From: a bacterium
GTDB taxonomy: Bacteria > Patescibacteriota > Minisyncoccia > UBA6257 > WO2-44-18
Reading direction: 5' to 3'
DNA: 64,000 bases
NCBI GenBank assembly: GCA_030646995.1
Contig: JAUSKF010000005.1
Span: 75,323-139,322, forward strand
The notes beneath the pieces were generated by a model. It was not told where the DNA came from. It did not search any database and was given only the letters and a program-made list of their open reading frames with translations. The translations under genes were made by a program, and so were the position numbers. This document shows, one piece after another, positions 16,688 to 21,432 of this stretch. The stretch's first letter is position 1, and every line of letters starts with the position of its first letter.

Positions 16688-17941
16688 ATGGCGAAAAGCG
16701 ATAAGAGTGGCTTTAGGACAACTTTCACGGCCTTTTTTGTCGTTGTCGCAGTCATTGCGGTGGGAGTAATCAGTTATTTGATGTTGCGCAAATTTAGTGC
16801 CGAGGATTCGGCACAGACCCAGCAAGGCCCACAAACACCGGGTGTAGTTCTAGACACTGCGCCGTCATTTGCTCCGTCGGTAGATACTTCGAAAAATATC
16901 CTGAAGACTGATATTTCTACGCAACCAAGCGACAAATATAAAACTTCTGCAGATGTGGCCGTTTCAAATAGCGATACGACTAAGGAATCTACCGATTTTT
17001 CCTTAAAATTTGGCATAGGCGCTTCGGGAAACCGCGTGACCAGTTTACAAAAATTTCTTTCTCAATTTCCCGAAATCTACCCTGAGGGCCTAGTAACTGG
17101 ATACTTTGGCTCGCTTACCGAAAAAGCAGTCAAACGCTTTCAAAACAGAGAGGACATTGAAGAGGCGGGGGTAGTCGGACCAGAAACACTACAGCGGTTG
17201 AGCGAGCTAGGGCTGAACCTTCAAGAAGGGTCCATCAACACCGTTACTACCGAGTCCGCACCAGAGTCAGCGCCAGCCGCTCCACCCGCAGTGGAAGCAT
17301 TCTTAAAAATCAACTCCATAGACCAATCCACGCTTCCAGAGAATGTCGTTGGGGGGTTCGACACTTTATTTGCAAGATTTCGAGCGTCTGGAGGAGACAC
17401 AGCAATTAATCGGATGGTTCTGGTGTCCGATTCCATCGACGCCGACAAAAACATTTTGTTGGTGAAAGCGCATGTTGTGTACGATCTGACAAATTGGGGG
17501 AGGTCGCCTCTATTTGTCACATCCCCCACATTTCCTATGCACGTTCCTCAATCTGGCTCATCTCCTGAATACTGGTGGTGGTCGGTTGACCTGGCACCTC
17601 CCCGCTCCGTGCCCAATATAAGCTATCAAATAAGCTACGTGAACGGTATCGGGACCGTTACCACGACAACCGTGCCAGCCGTACCAAATGTCTGGGTTTC
17701 GCCGAAAATCATCGCAAATGACTCCAGCGCGATAATCAATGTTGAGGCCTACTGCGCTCATCCAGCCCGGTTTAGAGTTGGGATTATGAGCGTGGATGCT
17801 GTTTCTGGTTCATTATTCGGCGAAACCAATATCACTGGCAAGCCCGTTATTAGTGGTTTGTCTCAACCCCTATACGATCGCTACATTGAGTGCATAGTTA
17901 TGCCAGACGGCTCGATACGATCATCTCAATCCGGTACGTAA
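16688..17941 (+). CDS. hypothetical secreted/membrane protein with peptidoglycan-binding domain
   Basis: N-terminal TM or signal sequence. The internal block NRVTSLQKFLSQFP...GYFGSLTEKAVKRFQ resembles PG_binding_1. Confidence 0.5.
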   Translation: MAKSDKSGFRTTFTAFFVVVAVIAVGVISYLMLRKFSAEDSAQTQQGPQTPGVVLDTAPSFAPSVDTSKNILKTDISTQPSDKYKTSADVAVSNSDTTKESTDFSLKFGIGASGNRVTSLQKFLSQFPEIYPEGLVTGYFGSLTEKAVKRFQNREDIEEAGVVGPETLQRLSELGLNLQEGSINTVTTESAPESAPAAPPAVEAFLKINSIDQSTLPENVVGGFDTLFARFRASGGDTAINRMVLVSDSIDADKNILLVKAHVVYDLTNWGRSPLFVTSPTFPMHVPQSGSSPEYWWWSVDLAPPRSVPNISYQISYVNGIGTVTTTTVPAVPNVWVSPKIIANDSSAIINVEAYCAHPARFRVGIMSVDAVSGSLFGETNITGKPVISGLSQPLYDRYIECIVMPDGSIRSSQSGT

Positions 17942-18001
17942 CTTCTTGACTTGCAGAGTTAAATGAACAAGCCCCGGGCTTTAGCCCGGGGATGCGACCT
18001 A

Positions 18002-18031
18002 TTGACAATAATAGGGCAAGTATGCTATATT
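18002..18031 (+). promoter_or_regulatory. sigma70-like promoter module A
   Basis: TTGACA at 18002-18007, an 18-nt spacer, then extended -10 TGcTATATT at 18023-18031. Nearly identical to the module at 18725. Confidence 0.55.
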
Positions 18032-18037
18032 ATTTAA

Positions 18038-18703
18038 ACGTTCATCGATAATTTTCGCGGATCGGATGGCGCCAATATGGCCTCCCCGAGCCCCGCGATA
18101 CTCCAGTGAGGAGATGCGCCCAATGCGACGCTTCATCACCCACACCGCCGTCTAAATTGTCCAGGAGCGCCGGCCTCGTACCCGCAATTGCATAACGCCG
18201 ATAGGGCTGTGTAGTTGCGGCCAGTACAAGACCACGTCCAACGGTTATGCCGCGGCACCGTGCCAGACTAAGTTCGCGGTTGGGCATTCAACCAAACCCA
18301 TGGAGGGTAGAGGGAGAAAATGGGTGGCCAAAGGTGGCCCGCCCGGCCACAGATTGGGTTGTAGCCCGTAAAGGCCTAACAACAAAAGGATCTCGAAAGA
18401 GATCCAGATGTTCGCCGTACCCACAGAGGACGACCAGCGACCCAGCGAAACTGCTAGCCCCGGCCGCATCCCCTCAAGGGACGCGCGGCGGACCACTAGC
18501 CAAACTCTAACCATCGGAGGTGCGACTATGGGTCGTTATCCGTACGGTGCAATAAAGCCCGGTTAGTTAATTGAGAAGCGCGGATTTGGACAGAATTCTT
18601 AACCCCCCGCCTATCGCTAGCCGGGCGAGCGCCCAGCGCAAAAAAGGACGCCCACTCCGAAAGTGGGCAACCGCCCCGAGCTTAGCTCGGGGCGTTCTAT
18701 TTT
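18038..18703 (+). ncRNA. candidate large structured ncRNA of unknown class
   Basis: About 660 nt, visibly GC-rich against a roughly 45% GC background, with only short ORFs on all six frames. Begins just after promoter A. Contains many hairpins, including GGATCTC-GAAA-GAGATCC at 18388-18405 and GTGGCC-cgcc-cGGCCAC at 18337-18354. Ends in tandem hairpins plus a T-tract at 18648-18703. Confidence 0.4.
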
Positions 18704-18724
18704 ACCAACCTATTTTCCCAGCCC

Positions 18725-18754
18725 TTGACAAAGTAGACCCATCTATGCTATCAT
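18725..18754 (+). promoter_or_regulatory. sigma70-like promoter module B
   Basis: TTGACA at 18725-18730, an 18-nt spacer, then TGcTATCAT at 18746-18754. The sequence downstream through AAACG is shared with module A. Confidence 0.55.
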
Positions 18755-18816
18755 TAAACGTAAGATTCGTTGGTAGTCCTTTAATCAAACAACCCCATTT
18801 TCCCAAGGAGAGAACC

Positions 18817-19017
18817 ATGCAGGGCGATCGATTCCGTGACGAGCTCAAGACTCGAAAGATTGCCAGCGCCGAAAGGGCGGCGATCAGCAGGAAGCGTTCT
18901 GGTAAGAGCCCCAACCGGGCTCTGCGGTTCGGCGATCTGGATCGCGAGCAGGTTCGTCAGGTTCGCGAACTGGCGGCTCCACGTGAAAGCTGGCTCGGGA
19001 TGAATCCCGAATACTAG
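18817..19017 (+). CDS. small basic protein (66 aa), hypothetical
   Basis: ATG preceded by the RBS aaggagag. Arg/Lys-rich ORF lying between promoter B and downstream hairpins. Could instead be non-coding. Confidence 0.3.
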   Translation: MQGDRFRDELKTRKIASAERAAISRKRSGKSPNRALRFGDLDREQVRQVRELAAPRESWLGMNPEY

Positions 19018-19211
19018 CCTACCTACGGTAGGCAGGCCGGGTGATCGGCTAACCCCAGCGTGGGCGTCCACAGGACGCCATCTCGAAAAAGGAGGAAAGT
19101 GTGCGCCTCATAACAAACCCCGTCGCTTTTGCCCTGGGGCGGTAGGGGGAACGGACAAAGGGTATTAAATCCAGACGCAAAGCCCCCGATAAAACGGGGG
19201 CTTTCTTATAG

Positions 19212-19239
19212 TTGATTTTTTCCCAGACATGTTATAATA
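19212..19239 (+). promoter_or_regulatory. recG promoter candidate
   Basis: TTGATT-N16-TATAAT about 15 nt upstream of the recG start. Confidence 0.5.
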
Positions 19240-19254
19240 TAGGCAAACTTTACA

Positions 19255-21432
19255 ATGTTGCGCCTAGAAACCGAACTCGCCAAGATTAATGGAATCGGGC
19301 AAAAGTTTATCGATAAGCTGGATAAGCTTAAGATAAAGACCGTCAAGGATCTTTTGTGGCATTTTCCGTTTCGCTATGATGATTTTTCGACCGTAGCTAA
19401 GATTGCTGATCTTAAAGTTAATCAATCTGCAACCGTCCGCGCAGTGGTTAAGAAGGTGTCCACTCGTCGTTCTTGGAAGAAGAAAATGGTAATCGTAGAG
19501 GCTCTAGTGGCCGACGAGACTGGCGGCATCAAAGCCATTTGGTTTAACCAGCCATTTATCGCAAAAGCATTAATGCCCGGCCGGCGGGTTAATTTTGCCG
19601 GTAAAGTTGCGATGTCTAATGATGAGATATTTCTACAAAGTCCGACTTACGAACTTTTCCAAAATACTACCGAGACTATGCATACCGCCGGTCTTATTCC
19701 GGTCTATCCCGAGACTCGGGGACTCACTTCAAAAGGCATCCGATTTTTGACTGGAGCGCTTTTGAAAAATTTGGAATCTATCCCTGATTTTTTGCCGGAA
19801 GAAGTTTTACTGCAGGCGGAAATGCCGAGTGTTGCTTCTGCGTTGAAAAATATCCATTTCCCCAAAAAAATTGAGCAGGCGGAAAAGGCCCGTGAGCGGT
19901 TTGCTTTTGCCGATATCTTTTTGATTCAATTGATGAATTTACGAAACCGGATGCTGCTTGCCAAAGAAAAAGCTCCGCCGCTGAATATAGATAAATCGGC
20001 TATTACTGATTTCATCGCCAGACTTCCTTTCGAGTTGACCGGCGCCCAGCATCGGAGCATAGATGAGATCGTCCATGATCTTGCGAAGCCCAATCCGATG
20101 AACCGTTTACTGCAGGGAGACGTCGGGTCGGGCAAAACCGTAGTCGCCGCAGTGGCCGCTTTGATGTCTGCGCAAAACGGAAAACAAACCGCTTTTATGG
20201 CGCCGACTGAAGTTTTAGCGCGCCAGCATTACAGAACTCTTTGCGCTATTTTTAAAAACTATCCGATTGGAATCGGAATTCTCACCGGCAGTGAGTCGAG
20301 GGCATTTTATGGCGAGGGGATGGAGAGCAAGCTGACTAGGCCGAAATTTCTGGAGGAAATAGCGCAGGACAAGATAAAAATAATTTTGGGAACCCACGCC
20401 CTGATTTCCGAAGTGAAGGGTAAGAAGTCCCTCATCTTTAATGACTTGGCTTTAGCAATCGTGGATGAGCAACACCGCTTCGGAGTGGACCAGCGCGCCT
20501 CTTTGGTGAAAAAAGAATCCGCCAGTCGGCGGACCGCCGGCTGGCGGACCGGCGAAACAACTACCGTCCATTTCCTTTCGATGAGCGCCACGCCGATACC
20601 CCGCACGCTTTCGCTGACATTATTCGGAGATTTGGATTTGTCGATTATTGATGAAATGCCCAAAGGCAGAAAAGAAATTGTTACTAAAGTTATACCGCCA
20701 TTAAACCGGAAGAAGGCTTATGATTTTATTCGCGGAGAGGTTAAAAAAGGCCGGCAGGCTTTTGTGATTTGCCCGAGAATTGAAGAGGCGGAAAAGCCGG
20801 AAGTGGCGAAGGTTGGTGACAAGAAAAAAATAAATCTTTGGGCGGACGTGAAAAATGTGACAGAAGAATATGAGAGATTATCAAAAACTATCTTCCCTGA
20901 CTTGAGAGTAGCGATGTTGCATGGCCGGATGAAGGGGGTAGAAAAGGCAGAAATAATGGCCGACTTCGCGGCCGGCCGCACCCATCTTTTGGTATCCACC
21001 TCCGTTATCGAAGTGGGAGTAGATGTGCCGAATGCTTCCATAATGATGATTGAGGGCGCGGATCGTTTCGGCTTGGCCCAGCTTTACCAATTCCGCGGCC
21101 GTGTCGGCAGGGGAGAGCATCAATCATATTGTTTGCTATTTACTGATTCTGAATCCGCCTCTACTGCGCAAAGGTTAGATGCCTTAATTAAAGCGAAAAA
21201 CGGTTTCGAGCTTGCCGAGCAGGACTTGGCTATTCGTGGCCCAGGAGAATTTATCGGCGATAAACAGACCGGCATTCCTGACTTGGCAATGCGTTCACTA
21301 AACAATATTGCGATAATTAAGCTCGCTCGCGCCTCCGCTGAAGTGTTGATAAAAAAAGACTACACCCTTTCCAATTATCCGCCCTTGAAGGCTGAGCTTG
21401 CCAAGTTTCAAAACAAAATTCACCTAGAATAA
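19255..21432 (+). CDS. recG: ATP-dependent DNA helicase RecG
   Basis: N-terminal wedge/OB region. Helicase motifs I (GDVGSGKT), II (DEQHRFG) and VI (QLYQFRGRVGRG). Carries an in-frame GC palindrome insertion at 20518-20554. Confidence 0.92.
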   Translation: MLRLETELAKINGIGQKFIDKLDKLKIKTVKDLLWHFPFRYDDFSTVAKIADLKVNQSATVRAVVKKVSTRRSWKKKMVIVEALVADETGGIKAIWFNQPFIAKALMPGRRVNFAGKVAMSNDEIFLQSPTYELFQNTTETMHTAGLIPVYPETRGLTSKGIRFLTGALLKNLESIPDFLPEEVLLQAEMPSVASALKNIHFPKKIEQAEKARERFAFADIFLIQLMNLRNRMLLAKEKAPPLNIDKSAITDFIARLPFELTGAQHRSIDEIVHDLAKPNPMNRLLQGDVGSGKTVVAAVAALMSAQNGKQTAFMAPTEVLARQHYRTLCAIFKNYPIGIGILTGSESRAFYGEGMESKLTRPKFLEEIAQDKIKIILGTHALISEVKGKKSLIFNDLALAIVDEQHRFGVDQRASLVKKESASRRTAGWRTGETTTVHFLSMSATPIPRTLSLTLFGDLDLSIIDEMPKGRKEIVTKVIPPLNRKKAYDFIRGEVKKGRQAFVICPRIEEAEKPEVAKVGDKKKINLWADVKNVTEEYERLSKTIFPDLRVAMLHGRMKGVEKAEIMADFAAGRTHLLVSTSVIEVGVDVPNASIMMIEGADRFGLAQLYQFRGRVGRGEHQSYCLLFTDSESASTAQRLDALIKAKNGFELAEQDLAIRGPGEFIGDKQTGIPDLAMRSLNNIAIIKLARASAEVLIKKDYTLSNYPPLKAELAKFQNKIHLE

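Follow-up and report, generated by a model that had tools for sequence, protein, structure and literature searches.

The gap between a PG_binding_1 protein gene and recG in the 64,000-nucleotide (nt) stretch of patescibacterial DNA analyzed here, hereafter the window, is a fast-evolving and lineage-specific island that comprises two autonomous predicted transcription units, each with a near-consensus extended -10 sigma-70 promoter and an intrinsic terminator (Table 1). The best-conserved element of the first of them, unit A, is a mini open reading frame (mini-ORF2) with the consensus heptapeptide MGRCP[Y/F]G, which is very probably translated and whose peptide sequence is very probably under selection. 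The second, unit B, carries a 66-amino-acid (aa) ORF that is, judging from its substitution pattern, a real conserved gene. Altogether, the region is a lineage-restricted leader-like RNA with predicted regulatory mini-ORFs followed by an orphan small-protein gene, and it is not a member of any Rfam or Pfam family.

Using unit A (18036-18705) as a query against fetched contigs of RecG relatives and of 66-aa protein relatives (the L-numbered loci below), we found homologues in L002 (RecG 89% identical), L057 (86%), L059 and L060 (both 84%), L070 (75%) and L076. None of these six relatives has a RecG less than 75% identical, and they bring unit A to seven species-level loci with the window included. 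The closest RecG relatives are metagenome-assembled genomes labelled Harrisonbacteria, Paceibacteria or "Saccharibacteria". In the aligned columns, unit A is 50-61% identical, with 146-345 gap columns, compared with a nucleotide identity of 69-79% for recG, showing that unit A evolves faster than the adjoining recG. Beyond mini-ORF2, unit A was missing from relatives whose RecG is 74% identical or less. A metagenome scan with the pattern GTGGC-N7-GCCACAGA-N8-17-AAAGGCCT returned five chance matches, none of them similar to unit A by nhmmer, and neither viral scans with three patterns nor blastn searches of phage and plasmid collections gave any match. In L002 and L057, unit A is present alone and is followed by an ortholog of the final terminator of the window island (19179-19204) and then by recG.

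Mini-ORF2 was seen in nine species-level loci, with a consensus made of a GGAGG Shine-Dalgarno sequence (SD), a spacer of 4-7 nt and the codons ATG GGN CGN TGY CCN TWY GGN in front of a stop codon. The encoded peptide is MGRCPYG in L002, L057, L060, L070 and L076, MGRCPFG in L072 and L074, MGRIPFGTTEPG in L059 and MGRYPYGAIKPG in the window. L072 and L074, whose RecG is 74% identical, are otherwise without similarity to unit A, making mini-ORF2 the sole part of it that is recognizable at this distance. The GGAGG is located 4-7 nt upstream of the start codon in eight of these loci, and the ninth (L076) has GGGAG. The residues M-G-R-[C/Y/I]-P-[Y/F]-G are kept while the third codon positions vary: all six third positions are variable, compared with 3 of the 12 first and second positions (P = 0.0045). 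The stop codon stands at codon 8 in 7/9 loci, where TGA, TAA and TAG are all used. Since third positions vary and stop codons interchange, mini-ORF2 is very probably translated, with selection acting on the peptide sequence. A small helix across its start codon does covary (CGAC/GUCG with GGT versus CGGC/GCCG with GGC), but this helix cannot account for the remaining third-position changes.

The position of mini-ORF2 relative to downstream RNA structure is constant as well, with a stable hairpin that begins +1 to +10 nt past the stop codon in 9/9 loci. In L057, L072 and L074, this hairpin doubles as the intrinsic terminator upstream of the recG promoter; in L057 and L074, the terminator follows the stop codon at 3-6 nt. 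The mini-ORF2 stop codon of the window is located within the 5' arm of an 11-base-pair (bp) helix (18557-18567/18616-18626), which holds the last codons as well and is also recognizable in L059 and L060. As for L072 and L074, a conserved ORF of about 93 aa (L072 596-880, L074 5434-5715; ..SKI[R/S]DD..REEW..SLEK[M/I]GL..) and another conserved stretch, non-coding and GC-rich, lie ahead of their mini-ORF2, so that a layout of RNA plus MGRCPFG plus terminator persists there with a changed upstream RNA.

Two other mini-ORFs preceded by an SD are found in the island. Mini-ORF1, near the 5' end of unit A, is kept in five loci, with the products MRRFITHTAV (window), MRRFITHPVHIC (L076), MRFIASK (L002), MRFIGK (L057) and MRILAFAANI (L060); its Arg-Arg pair is encoded by different codons in the window and in L076 (CGA CGC versus CGC AGA). 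Its SD sits in the 3' arm of an anti-SD hairpin that is predicted to sequester this ribosome-binding site (RBS) and that is kept, with altered pairs, in L002, L057 and L076. Mini-ORF3 is located in the 3' untranslated region (UTR) of unit B and corresponds to MFLITNPAAFALAR in L077. Its SD and start codon are conserved in five loci, and the length of the ORF ranges from 4 to 37 codons in L059, L060 and L076. The G-rich 3' arm of the hairpin that overlaps mini-ORF3 (19118-19150) could possibly pair instead with the 5' arm of the final terminator, which is C-rich (GGGGG/CCCCC).

Unit B homologues are found in L059, L060, L076 and L077. A tblastn search of the fetched loci detected 66-aa homologues in L060 (61% identity, E = 1e-21) and L059, and an exhaustive search of representatives added three further relatives (P0122, P0123 and P0125), the two other matches of that search (P0124 and P0126) being repeat-protein artefacts; a word-index protein search returned the 66-aa ORF itself only. 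Pairwise ratios of non-synonymous to synonymous substitution rates (dN/dS) range from 0.13 to 0.59, with dS often >1, and this purifying selection, together with the homologues, argues that the 66-aa ORF is a real gene, in line with the RBS and Arg/Lys-rich ORF (18817-19017) that a preliminary description of this DNA had pointed out. Compared with the other copies, that of the window begins about 10 codons further downstream. An AlphaFold (AF2) model predicts a long N-terminal helix followed by short helices (pLDDT 78, pTM 0.38), and a Foldseek search with this model found nothing in the PDB at E <= 0.001. Against Pfam, the ORF reached 18.2 bits with RskA_N, the N-terminal domain of anti-sigma-K (E = 0.003), below the gathering threshold of 27 bits, and its L060 and L059 homologues have no such match; PHROG and PADLOC gave no match, and the sole NCBIfam match, to flavo_cyto_c, was negligible, with 11.7 bits where the cut-off is 285. 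For several of the small proteins in these loci, Pfam, PHROG, PADLOC and NCBIfam likewise gave nothing usable. A small ORF of L007 was rejected as a member of the 66-aa family (14 columns and 6% probability in a profile comparison). Traits of type I toxin-antitoxin systems were not found either: the peptides are 7-14 aa long or basic and helical, not transmembrane, and no minus-strand promoter was predicted within units A or B (18000-19250).

Most of the overall organization proposed in the preliminary description was recovered. The roughly 1.3 kb between the PG-binding gene and recG are indeed without a credible long ORF, according to both the ORF list and Pfam, since the ORFs other than the 66-aa one have no Pfam match or are not kept in relatives. 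The GC content is also clearly above the window average, as had been stated: sliding 200-nt windows gave 0.52-0.61 over 18000-19200, versus 0.38-0.48 in the flanks, with 0.582 for unit A and 0.468 (about 0.47) for the remainder of the 64 kb. The maximum (0.615) falls on the 66-aa ORF region, and since the most GC-rich part is coding, high GC is here a property of the island and not a mark of a non-coding RNA (ncRNA). Neither this point nor the three mini-ORFs had been noted in the preliminary description. Promoters A and B were both found where they had been placed, each with 11/12 consensus positions plus the TG of an extended -10, and so was the double hairpin with its T-tract (proposed at 18648-18703, found at 18649-18704); the final terminator exists too, slightly further right (19179-19204) than proposed (19160-19200). 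With these elements, the two promoter-to-terminator units stand, and from the predicted promoters and terminators we infer that both are transcribed. The tandem hairpins T1/T2 keep their structure in L059, L060 and L076 with different stem sequences, and L002 has one extra hairpin between mini-ORF2 and its ortholog of the final terminator.

What did not hold is the idea that the two promoters form a duplicated module. TTGACA-N15-TGCTAT does occur exactly twice in the 64 kb, as promoters A and B, where shuffled sequences predict 0 occurrences. In the relatives, TTGACA-N14/15-TGCTAnnAT heads nearly every small unit whose 5' end is on the contig: it precedes unit B in L059, L076 and L077 (counterparts of promoter B at L059 486, L076 1098 and L077 39), and it also precedes unrelated cargo, namely a 251-aa ORF in L004 and the small-protein ORFs of an FPGV family or with signal peptides in L072-L074 and L076. 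In L002 and L057, a promoter of the A type heads either unit A or a small ORF immediately before it; for L076, the closest site of this type sits upstream of the preceding small ORF, and in L060 a -10 remnant is left at the contig start. Considering that the same promoter heads units with unrelated cargo, the likeness between A and B reflects a shared class of strong promoters and not a private duplication.

The preliminary description had further proposed that unit A is one large structured ncRNA with several perfect helices, two of them capped by GNRA (GAAA) loops, and had made this reading depend on conservation and covariation in related Patescibacteria. Part of this stands: a promoter-to-terminator RNA is predicted, it has homologues in six further species-level loci and some of their hairpins are compatible. 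The plus strand of 18036-18705 folds at -268.8 kcal/mol with z = -5.5 relative to shuffles (z = -3.2 for the minus strand). A covariance model of a conserved core of about 140 nt, in which the strands GCCAC-RG-...-AGGCC are invariant, matched once in each of the seven loci (103-130 bits) and nowhere else in 523 kb. We tested a hand-derived structure of five helices for this core on the seven sequences with 500 shuffles. In total, 94% of the cells were paired, versus 27-38% when partners were slid, most stems being invariant, and three pairs showed double changes (23-37 AU/GC; 98-162 AU/GC/GU; 124-130 CG/UA/UG). The covariation score of these seven sequences was 0.182 against a shuffled mean of 0.172 and was reached by 170/500 shuffles, so that covariation among relatives is not above that of shuffles. 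Lineage-specific compensatory changes were seen in the 18183-18219 hairpin relative to L076, in the inner stem of the 18056-18097 hairpin (G-C to A-U; a hairpin shared with L060 and L076) and in the terminator stems.

Other parts of that proposal do not stand. Just two local helices recur in at least four of the seven sequences when homologues are folded separately, and no consistent long-range fold emerged from RNAalifold or from base-pair probabilities computed for each sequence across the whole of unit A. Several hairpins, including the GAAA-capped one at 18388-18405, are not conserved at all in homologues; this one does carry a GAAA tetraloop, while in the second proposed cap (18649-18669) the GAAA lies inside a larger loop. 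With only seven loci, a divergence faster than that of recG, local hairpins only and mini-ORFs that look translated, the case for an ornate, globally folded class is weak, and unit A is better described as an RNA that is structured locally and has a conserved core. Since the mini-ORFs with their SD are the most conserved elements, this RNA is not simply non-coding. That its class lies outside known families, as had been suspected, agrees with the Rfam 15 search of the 64-kb window, which gave tRNAs only at the gathering threshold. At E <= 10, 17800-19400 and the L076 and L077 loci showed only terminator-like partial matches (12-31 bits versus thresholds of 37-196), and no family reached its threshold there, with transfer-messenger RNA (tmRNA), RNase P, 6S, OLE, GOLLD, ROOL, HEARO, raiA and riboswitches among those covered; ARAGORN detected no tmRNA.

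The best model that we can propose for the island, and a tentative one, is ribosome-dependent transcription attenuation at the mini-ORFs. Ribosomes translating these mini-ORFs, and possibly pausing on them, would cover or melt the hairpins located 1-10 nt past the stop codons; this remodelling would alter terminator formation and thereby tune how often transcription of unit A continues past its end, reaching unit B in the window, L059 and L076 or, where unit B is absent, heading towards recG in L002, L057, L070, L072 and L074. MGRCPYG itself might be a termination-arrest peptide. Similar effects are known elsewhere: a translating ribosome represses terminators that lie a few bp past the stop codon (PMC4824070), a Rho-independent terminator is blocked when the 6-aa MsrDL leader peptide stalls ahead of its release (PMC10314930), and PepNL arrests at a UGA stop codon (PMC11890864). 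In a more ambitious version, which we find rather unlikely, MGRCP[Y/F]G would be a new heptapeptide arrest or sensor leader whose translation is gated by the P1-P2 core of about 140 nt present in seven loci, the whole being a new, Patescibacteria-specific class of peptide-plus-RNA attenuator that controls read-through to the small-protein gene and recG.

Several observations weigh against attenuation. Unit B and recG each have a good promoter of their own, and the one of recG is kept in distant relatives, so that control of read-through may matter little. In the window, T1/T2 are about 80 nt past the mini-ORF2 stop codon, and mini-ORF2 has lost the Cys and the stop in two of the nine loci (window and L059), where it runs to 12 codons. 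We could not define any convincing or conserved antiterminator/terminator pairing, and the mini-ORFs have no run of regulatory codons. Finally, the conserved 140-nt core is not accounted for by this model.

Unit A may also act in another way. It is possible, if somewhat improbable, that it serves as a small mRNA and that its micropeptides (MGRCPYG and MRRFI...) work in trans, be it as signals or as cofactor-like or ribosome-acting molecules, within an island of highly expressed small proteins of an episymbiont. The amino-acid sequence itself is conserved, beyond the mere presence of an ORF, unit A has its own promoter and terminator, and the neighboring modules in relatives are all small proteins behind the same strong promoter (FPGV, signal-peptide ORF, 66-aa). 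Yet directly translated trans-acting peptides of 6-12 residues are rare, no gene for a modifying enzyme, exporter or receptor is linked in the window or the fetched loci, Cys is lost in 2/9 copies of mini-ORF2, and stop codons that are constantly right before hairpins suggest a role in cis. Less likely still, unit A would represent a new class of structured ncRNAs that act in trans or sense a ligand, with the P1-P2 core as its functional center and mini-ORFs that are incidental or merely overlap structure. The missing Rfam match, the z-score, the single copy of the core in each of seven loci, its paired cells and its three pairs with compensatory changes all fit such an RNA, as do the conserved nucleotides in junction strands, which are aptamer-like, and the covarying helix over the start codon of mini-ORF2. 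It is weakened by the shuffles that match the core covariation, by the two local helices that alone recur in independent folds, by a divergence faster than that of recG with many indels, and by its absence at RecG identities of 74% or less and from metagenome and viral scans; moreover, RNA pairing fails to explain the codon-position pattern and the stop interchange of mini-ORF2.

We also considered that the island may have no function, being decaying foreign DNA left by insertions next to tRNA-Ile(UAU), with its GC content and hairpins as leftovers. The site is an insertion hotspot, where nearly every relative has its own content between ftsH/tRNA-Ile and recG. In L060, units A and B are separated by an IS30-like transposase gene, a GIY-YIG gene precedes recG in L072 and L073, and tRNA 3'-end fragments are duplicated in L004, L073 and L074. 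The GC content also exceeds the genome average. This reading is nevertheless quite improbable, considering that promoters, SD sites, mini-ORF frames and the 66-aa ORF are kept across species with dS often >1, that the window has no integrase, attachment (att) repeat or match to phage or plasmid DNA, and that the small ORFs have no PHROG or PADLOC matches. As for a protein of normal size masked by an alternative code, which the preliminary description had named as what would overturn its own reading, or by frameshifts or pseudogenization, unit A showed no conserved long ORF under code 11 and no hidden one under alternative codes, and we regard such a protein as very improbable. ORFs of 81-89 aa do exist on both strands of unit A, but they have no Pfam matches; reading TGA or TAG as sense yields no ORF spanning the unit, and TAA is the main stop of the genome (22/31 long ORFs). 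Indels among homologues are not multiples of three, and 1-nt indels or stops break the frames in L060, L070 and L002.

Ribosome-dependent attenuation can be compared with several known systems. Like the arrest leaders MsrDL (of mefA/msrD), TnaC and PepNL, the island has a very short SD-led ORF (6-14 codons) that is conserved in amino-acid sequence, and a ribosome stalled at its stop codon would cover the hairpin or terminator that begins a few nt further on. Unlike in those leaders, the peptides have no sequence similarity to any of the three, the downstream genes have their own promoters, and mini-ORF2 follows about 450 nt of conserved hairpin-rich RNA instead of opening a short leader. With the amino-acid attenuators (trp, his, thr and phe; RF00513, RF00506 and RF01859), the island shares a short ORF, an overlapping hairpin and an intrinsic terminator in series, and weak matches to these three families do fall on the island terminators (19-21 bits versus gathering thresholds of 41-55). 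Unlike trp or his attenuators, MGRCPYG, MRRFITHTAV and MRLITNPVAFALGR contain no runs of cognate codons, there is no clear 2:3 antiterminator, and the downstream genes are neither biosynthetic nor dependent on the leader promoter. The Salmonella mgtA and mgtCBR leaders (mgtL, mgtM and mgtP) are long structured 5' RNAs with more than one short regulatory ORF, and they combine RNA structure with sensing through short-ORF translation, as proposed here; they belong to an unrelated family in unrelated organisms, and unit A shows no visible Pro- or ATP-sensing logic and is bounded by its own terminator and then another promoter.

Unit A also resembles RNAs that act on their own. Dual-function small RNAs such as RNAIII/hld, SgrS/SgrT and SR1/SR1P are autonomous RNAs of a few hundred nt that are structured and encode a tiny peptide, and unit A is likewise a predicted autonomous promoter-to-terminator RNA with structure and tiny peptides, which are much shorter here (7-12 aa) and without homology to theirs. 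OLE, GOLLD, ROOL, HEARO and raiA are comparable to unit A in size (about 500-660 nt), in their GC enrichment over the genome and in their many hairpins. Unlike them, unit A has no Rfam match, a very narrow range, rapid divergence and no significant covariation, and it differs from large ornate ncRNAs by the conserved SD-led mini-ORFs inside the RNA.

To our knowledge, few regulatory RNAs or leader peptides have been described in Patescibacteria (also known as CPR), which are largely uncultured, and none surfaced in one literature search. The locus offers a conserved and testable 7-codon ORF a few nt before terminators, together with a small family of strongly promoted orphan proteins beside a hotspot of gene turnover. 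Its significance would be greater if MGRCPYG proved to be a new arrest peptide or the core an aptamer. It also calls for caution: because its most GC-rich part is the coding 66-aa ORF, a GC-rich, ORF-poor and hairpin-dense island in this genome does not by itself amount to a giant ncRNA.

Table 1. Features of the island and of its borders (window coordinates).
Feature	Position	Strand	Remarks
Gap under study	17942-19254		1313 nt, between the PG_binding_1 protein gene (16688-17941) and recG (19255-21432)
GC-rich hairpin 3' of the PG-binding protein gene	17969-17993		terminator-like, scored on the - strand
Promoter A	18002-18031	+	TTGACA, 15 nt, extended -10 TGCTATATT
Unit A	18038-18704	+	predicted transcript of ~660 nt, promoter A to T2, ends inferred
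5' compound hairpin	18056-18097	+	CGCGG...CCGCG; common to L060 and L076; from folding and sequence reading
Anti-SD/SD hairpin	18101-18113	+	CUCC-AGUGA-GGAG; predicted to sequester the RBS of mini-ORF1
Mini-ORF1	18123-18155	+	10 codons, MRRFITHTAV then stop
Long hairpin	18183-18219	+	confined to the window and L076, which differ by compensatory changes
Conserved core of ~140 nt	18240-18379	+	covariance model matches it in seven loci
Core hairpins	18241-18253 and 18257-18280	+
Core P1	18322-18325 with 18374-18377
Core P2	18334-18339 with 18345-18350
Perfect hairpin with GAAA cap	18388-18405	+	not conserved in homologues
Mini-ORF2	18528-18566	+	SD GGAGG 18516-18520; MGRYPYGAIKPG then stop
Domain closed by long-range helix	18557-18626	+	11 bp, 18557-18567 with 18616-18626
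Tandem hairpins	18649-18704	+	T1 18649-18669; intrinsic terminator T2 18672-18694 plus T-tract
Promoter B	18725-18754	+	TTGACA, 15 nt, TGCTATCAT
Unit B	about 18760-19204	+	predicted mRNA of a conserved basic helical protein of 66-82 aa
RBS and gene of the 66-aa basic helical protein	18804-19017	+	ORF 18817-19017
Two 3'-UTR hairpins after the 66-aa ORF	19018-19081	+	kept in L077
Mini-ORF3	19101-19145	+	GTG start; region with SD AAGGAGG 19089-19145; MRLITNPVAFALGR then stop; 3' UTR of unit B
Hairpin overlapping mini-ORF3	19118-19150	+	from sequence reading
Final intrinsic terminator	19179-19204	+	orthologous to the L057 terminator directly after mini-ORF2
Promoter of recG	19213-19240	+	extended -10 TGTTATAAT; kept in distant relatives

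Around the island, the backbone ftsH - tRNA-Ile(UAU) - recG is conserved, and the variable part between the tRNA and recG differs in nearly every relative. In the window, it includes the PG_binding_1 gene (417 aa) between tRNA-Ile and unit A. This gene is missing from L002 and from other relatives whose contigs span the interval, so that it is apparently an insertion in this genome, and the sole phage-family matches of its product are PG-binding domains of endolysins. The promoter and 5' UTR of recG (19213-19254; TGTTATAATATAGGCAAACTT) are largely conserved in nucleotides down to about 63% RecG identity, with orthologs in L002, L004, L006, L007, L057, L059, L060, L071, L072, L074 and L077; they carry substitutions in the most distant loci, yet are far more conserved than the upstream island.

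Mobile or foreign-looking elements recur at this site. The IS30-like transposase gene of L060 (688-1671, minus strand; HTH_38 plus rve) lies exactly between units A and B, which are therefore separable. In L072 (1210-1503) and L073 (1999-2292), a 97-aa GIY-YIG (T5orf172-like) ORF is located between the last island terminator and recG, and its end overlaps the recG start codon. An element of about 150 nt adjacent to tRNA-Ile(UAU), ending in a second copy of the tRNA 3' end, is found in L004 (2522-2690), L074 (5027-5195) and L073 (245-440) and looks like an integration scar or a miniature element. In the window, no second tRNA-Ile 3' end within 3 mismatches, no integrase and no att repeat were detected. 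The 251-aa ORF of L004 (2702-3533) is GC-rich (0.57), occupies the same site behind the same promoter type and has no Pfam, PHROG, PADLOC or NCBIfam match; it was rejected as a counterpart of the window sequence, to which it has no similarity by tblastn.

Orphan small proteins are also frequent at this site. One family of 74-108 aa, with the motif ..[E/D/S]FPGV.., is found in L059 (572-802), L060 (1799-2023) and L072 (280-606); in L059 and L060 it comes before the 66-aa homologue, in L072 it stands at the head of a unit of its own, and it is missing from the window. Another small ORF family stands upstream of unit A in L076 (178-428) and occurs in L073 (638-890), with C-terminal ends in L070 (1-122) and L072 (1-103). 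This ORF has a signal-peptide-like start (MKTLIVVLAVLAFAAPCFS or MKTILAVLVLVSICSLNCFS), after which two species have a TGA in frame at an identical position, and a Pro/Gln/Glu-rich tail (PPP[N/Q]TPGYEGM...) goes on in frame past the TGA, which could reflect recoding or read-through, or a split gene; in the window, TGA ends 2/31 long ORFs. On the other side of recG, a HicB/HicA toxin-antitoxin pair is inserted just downstream of the gene in L069 (1867-2288).

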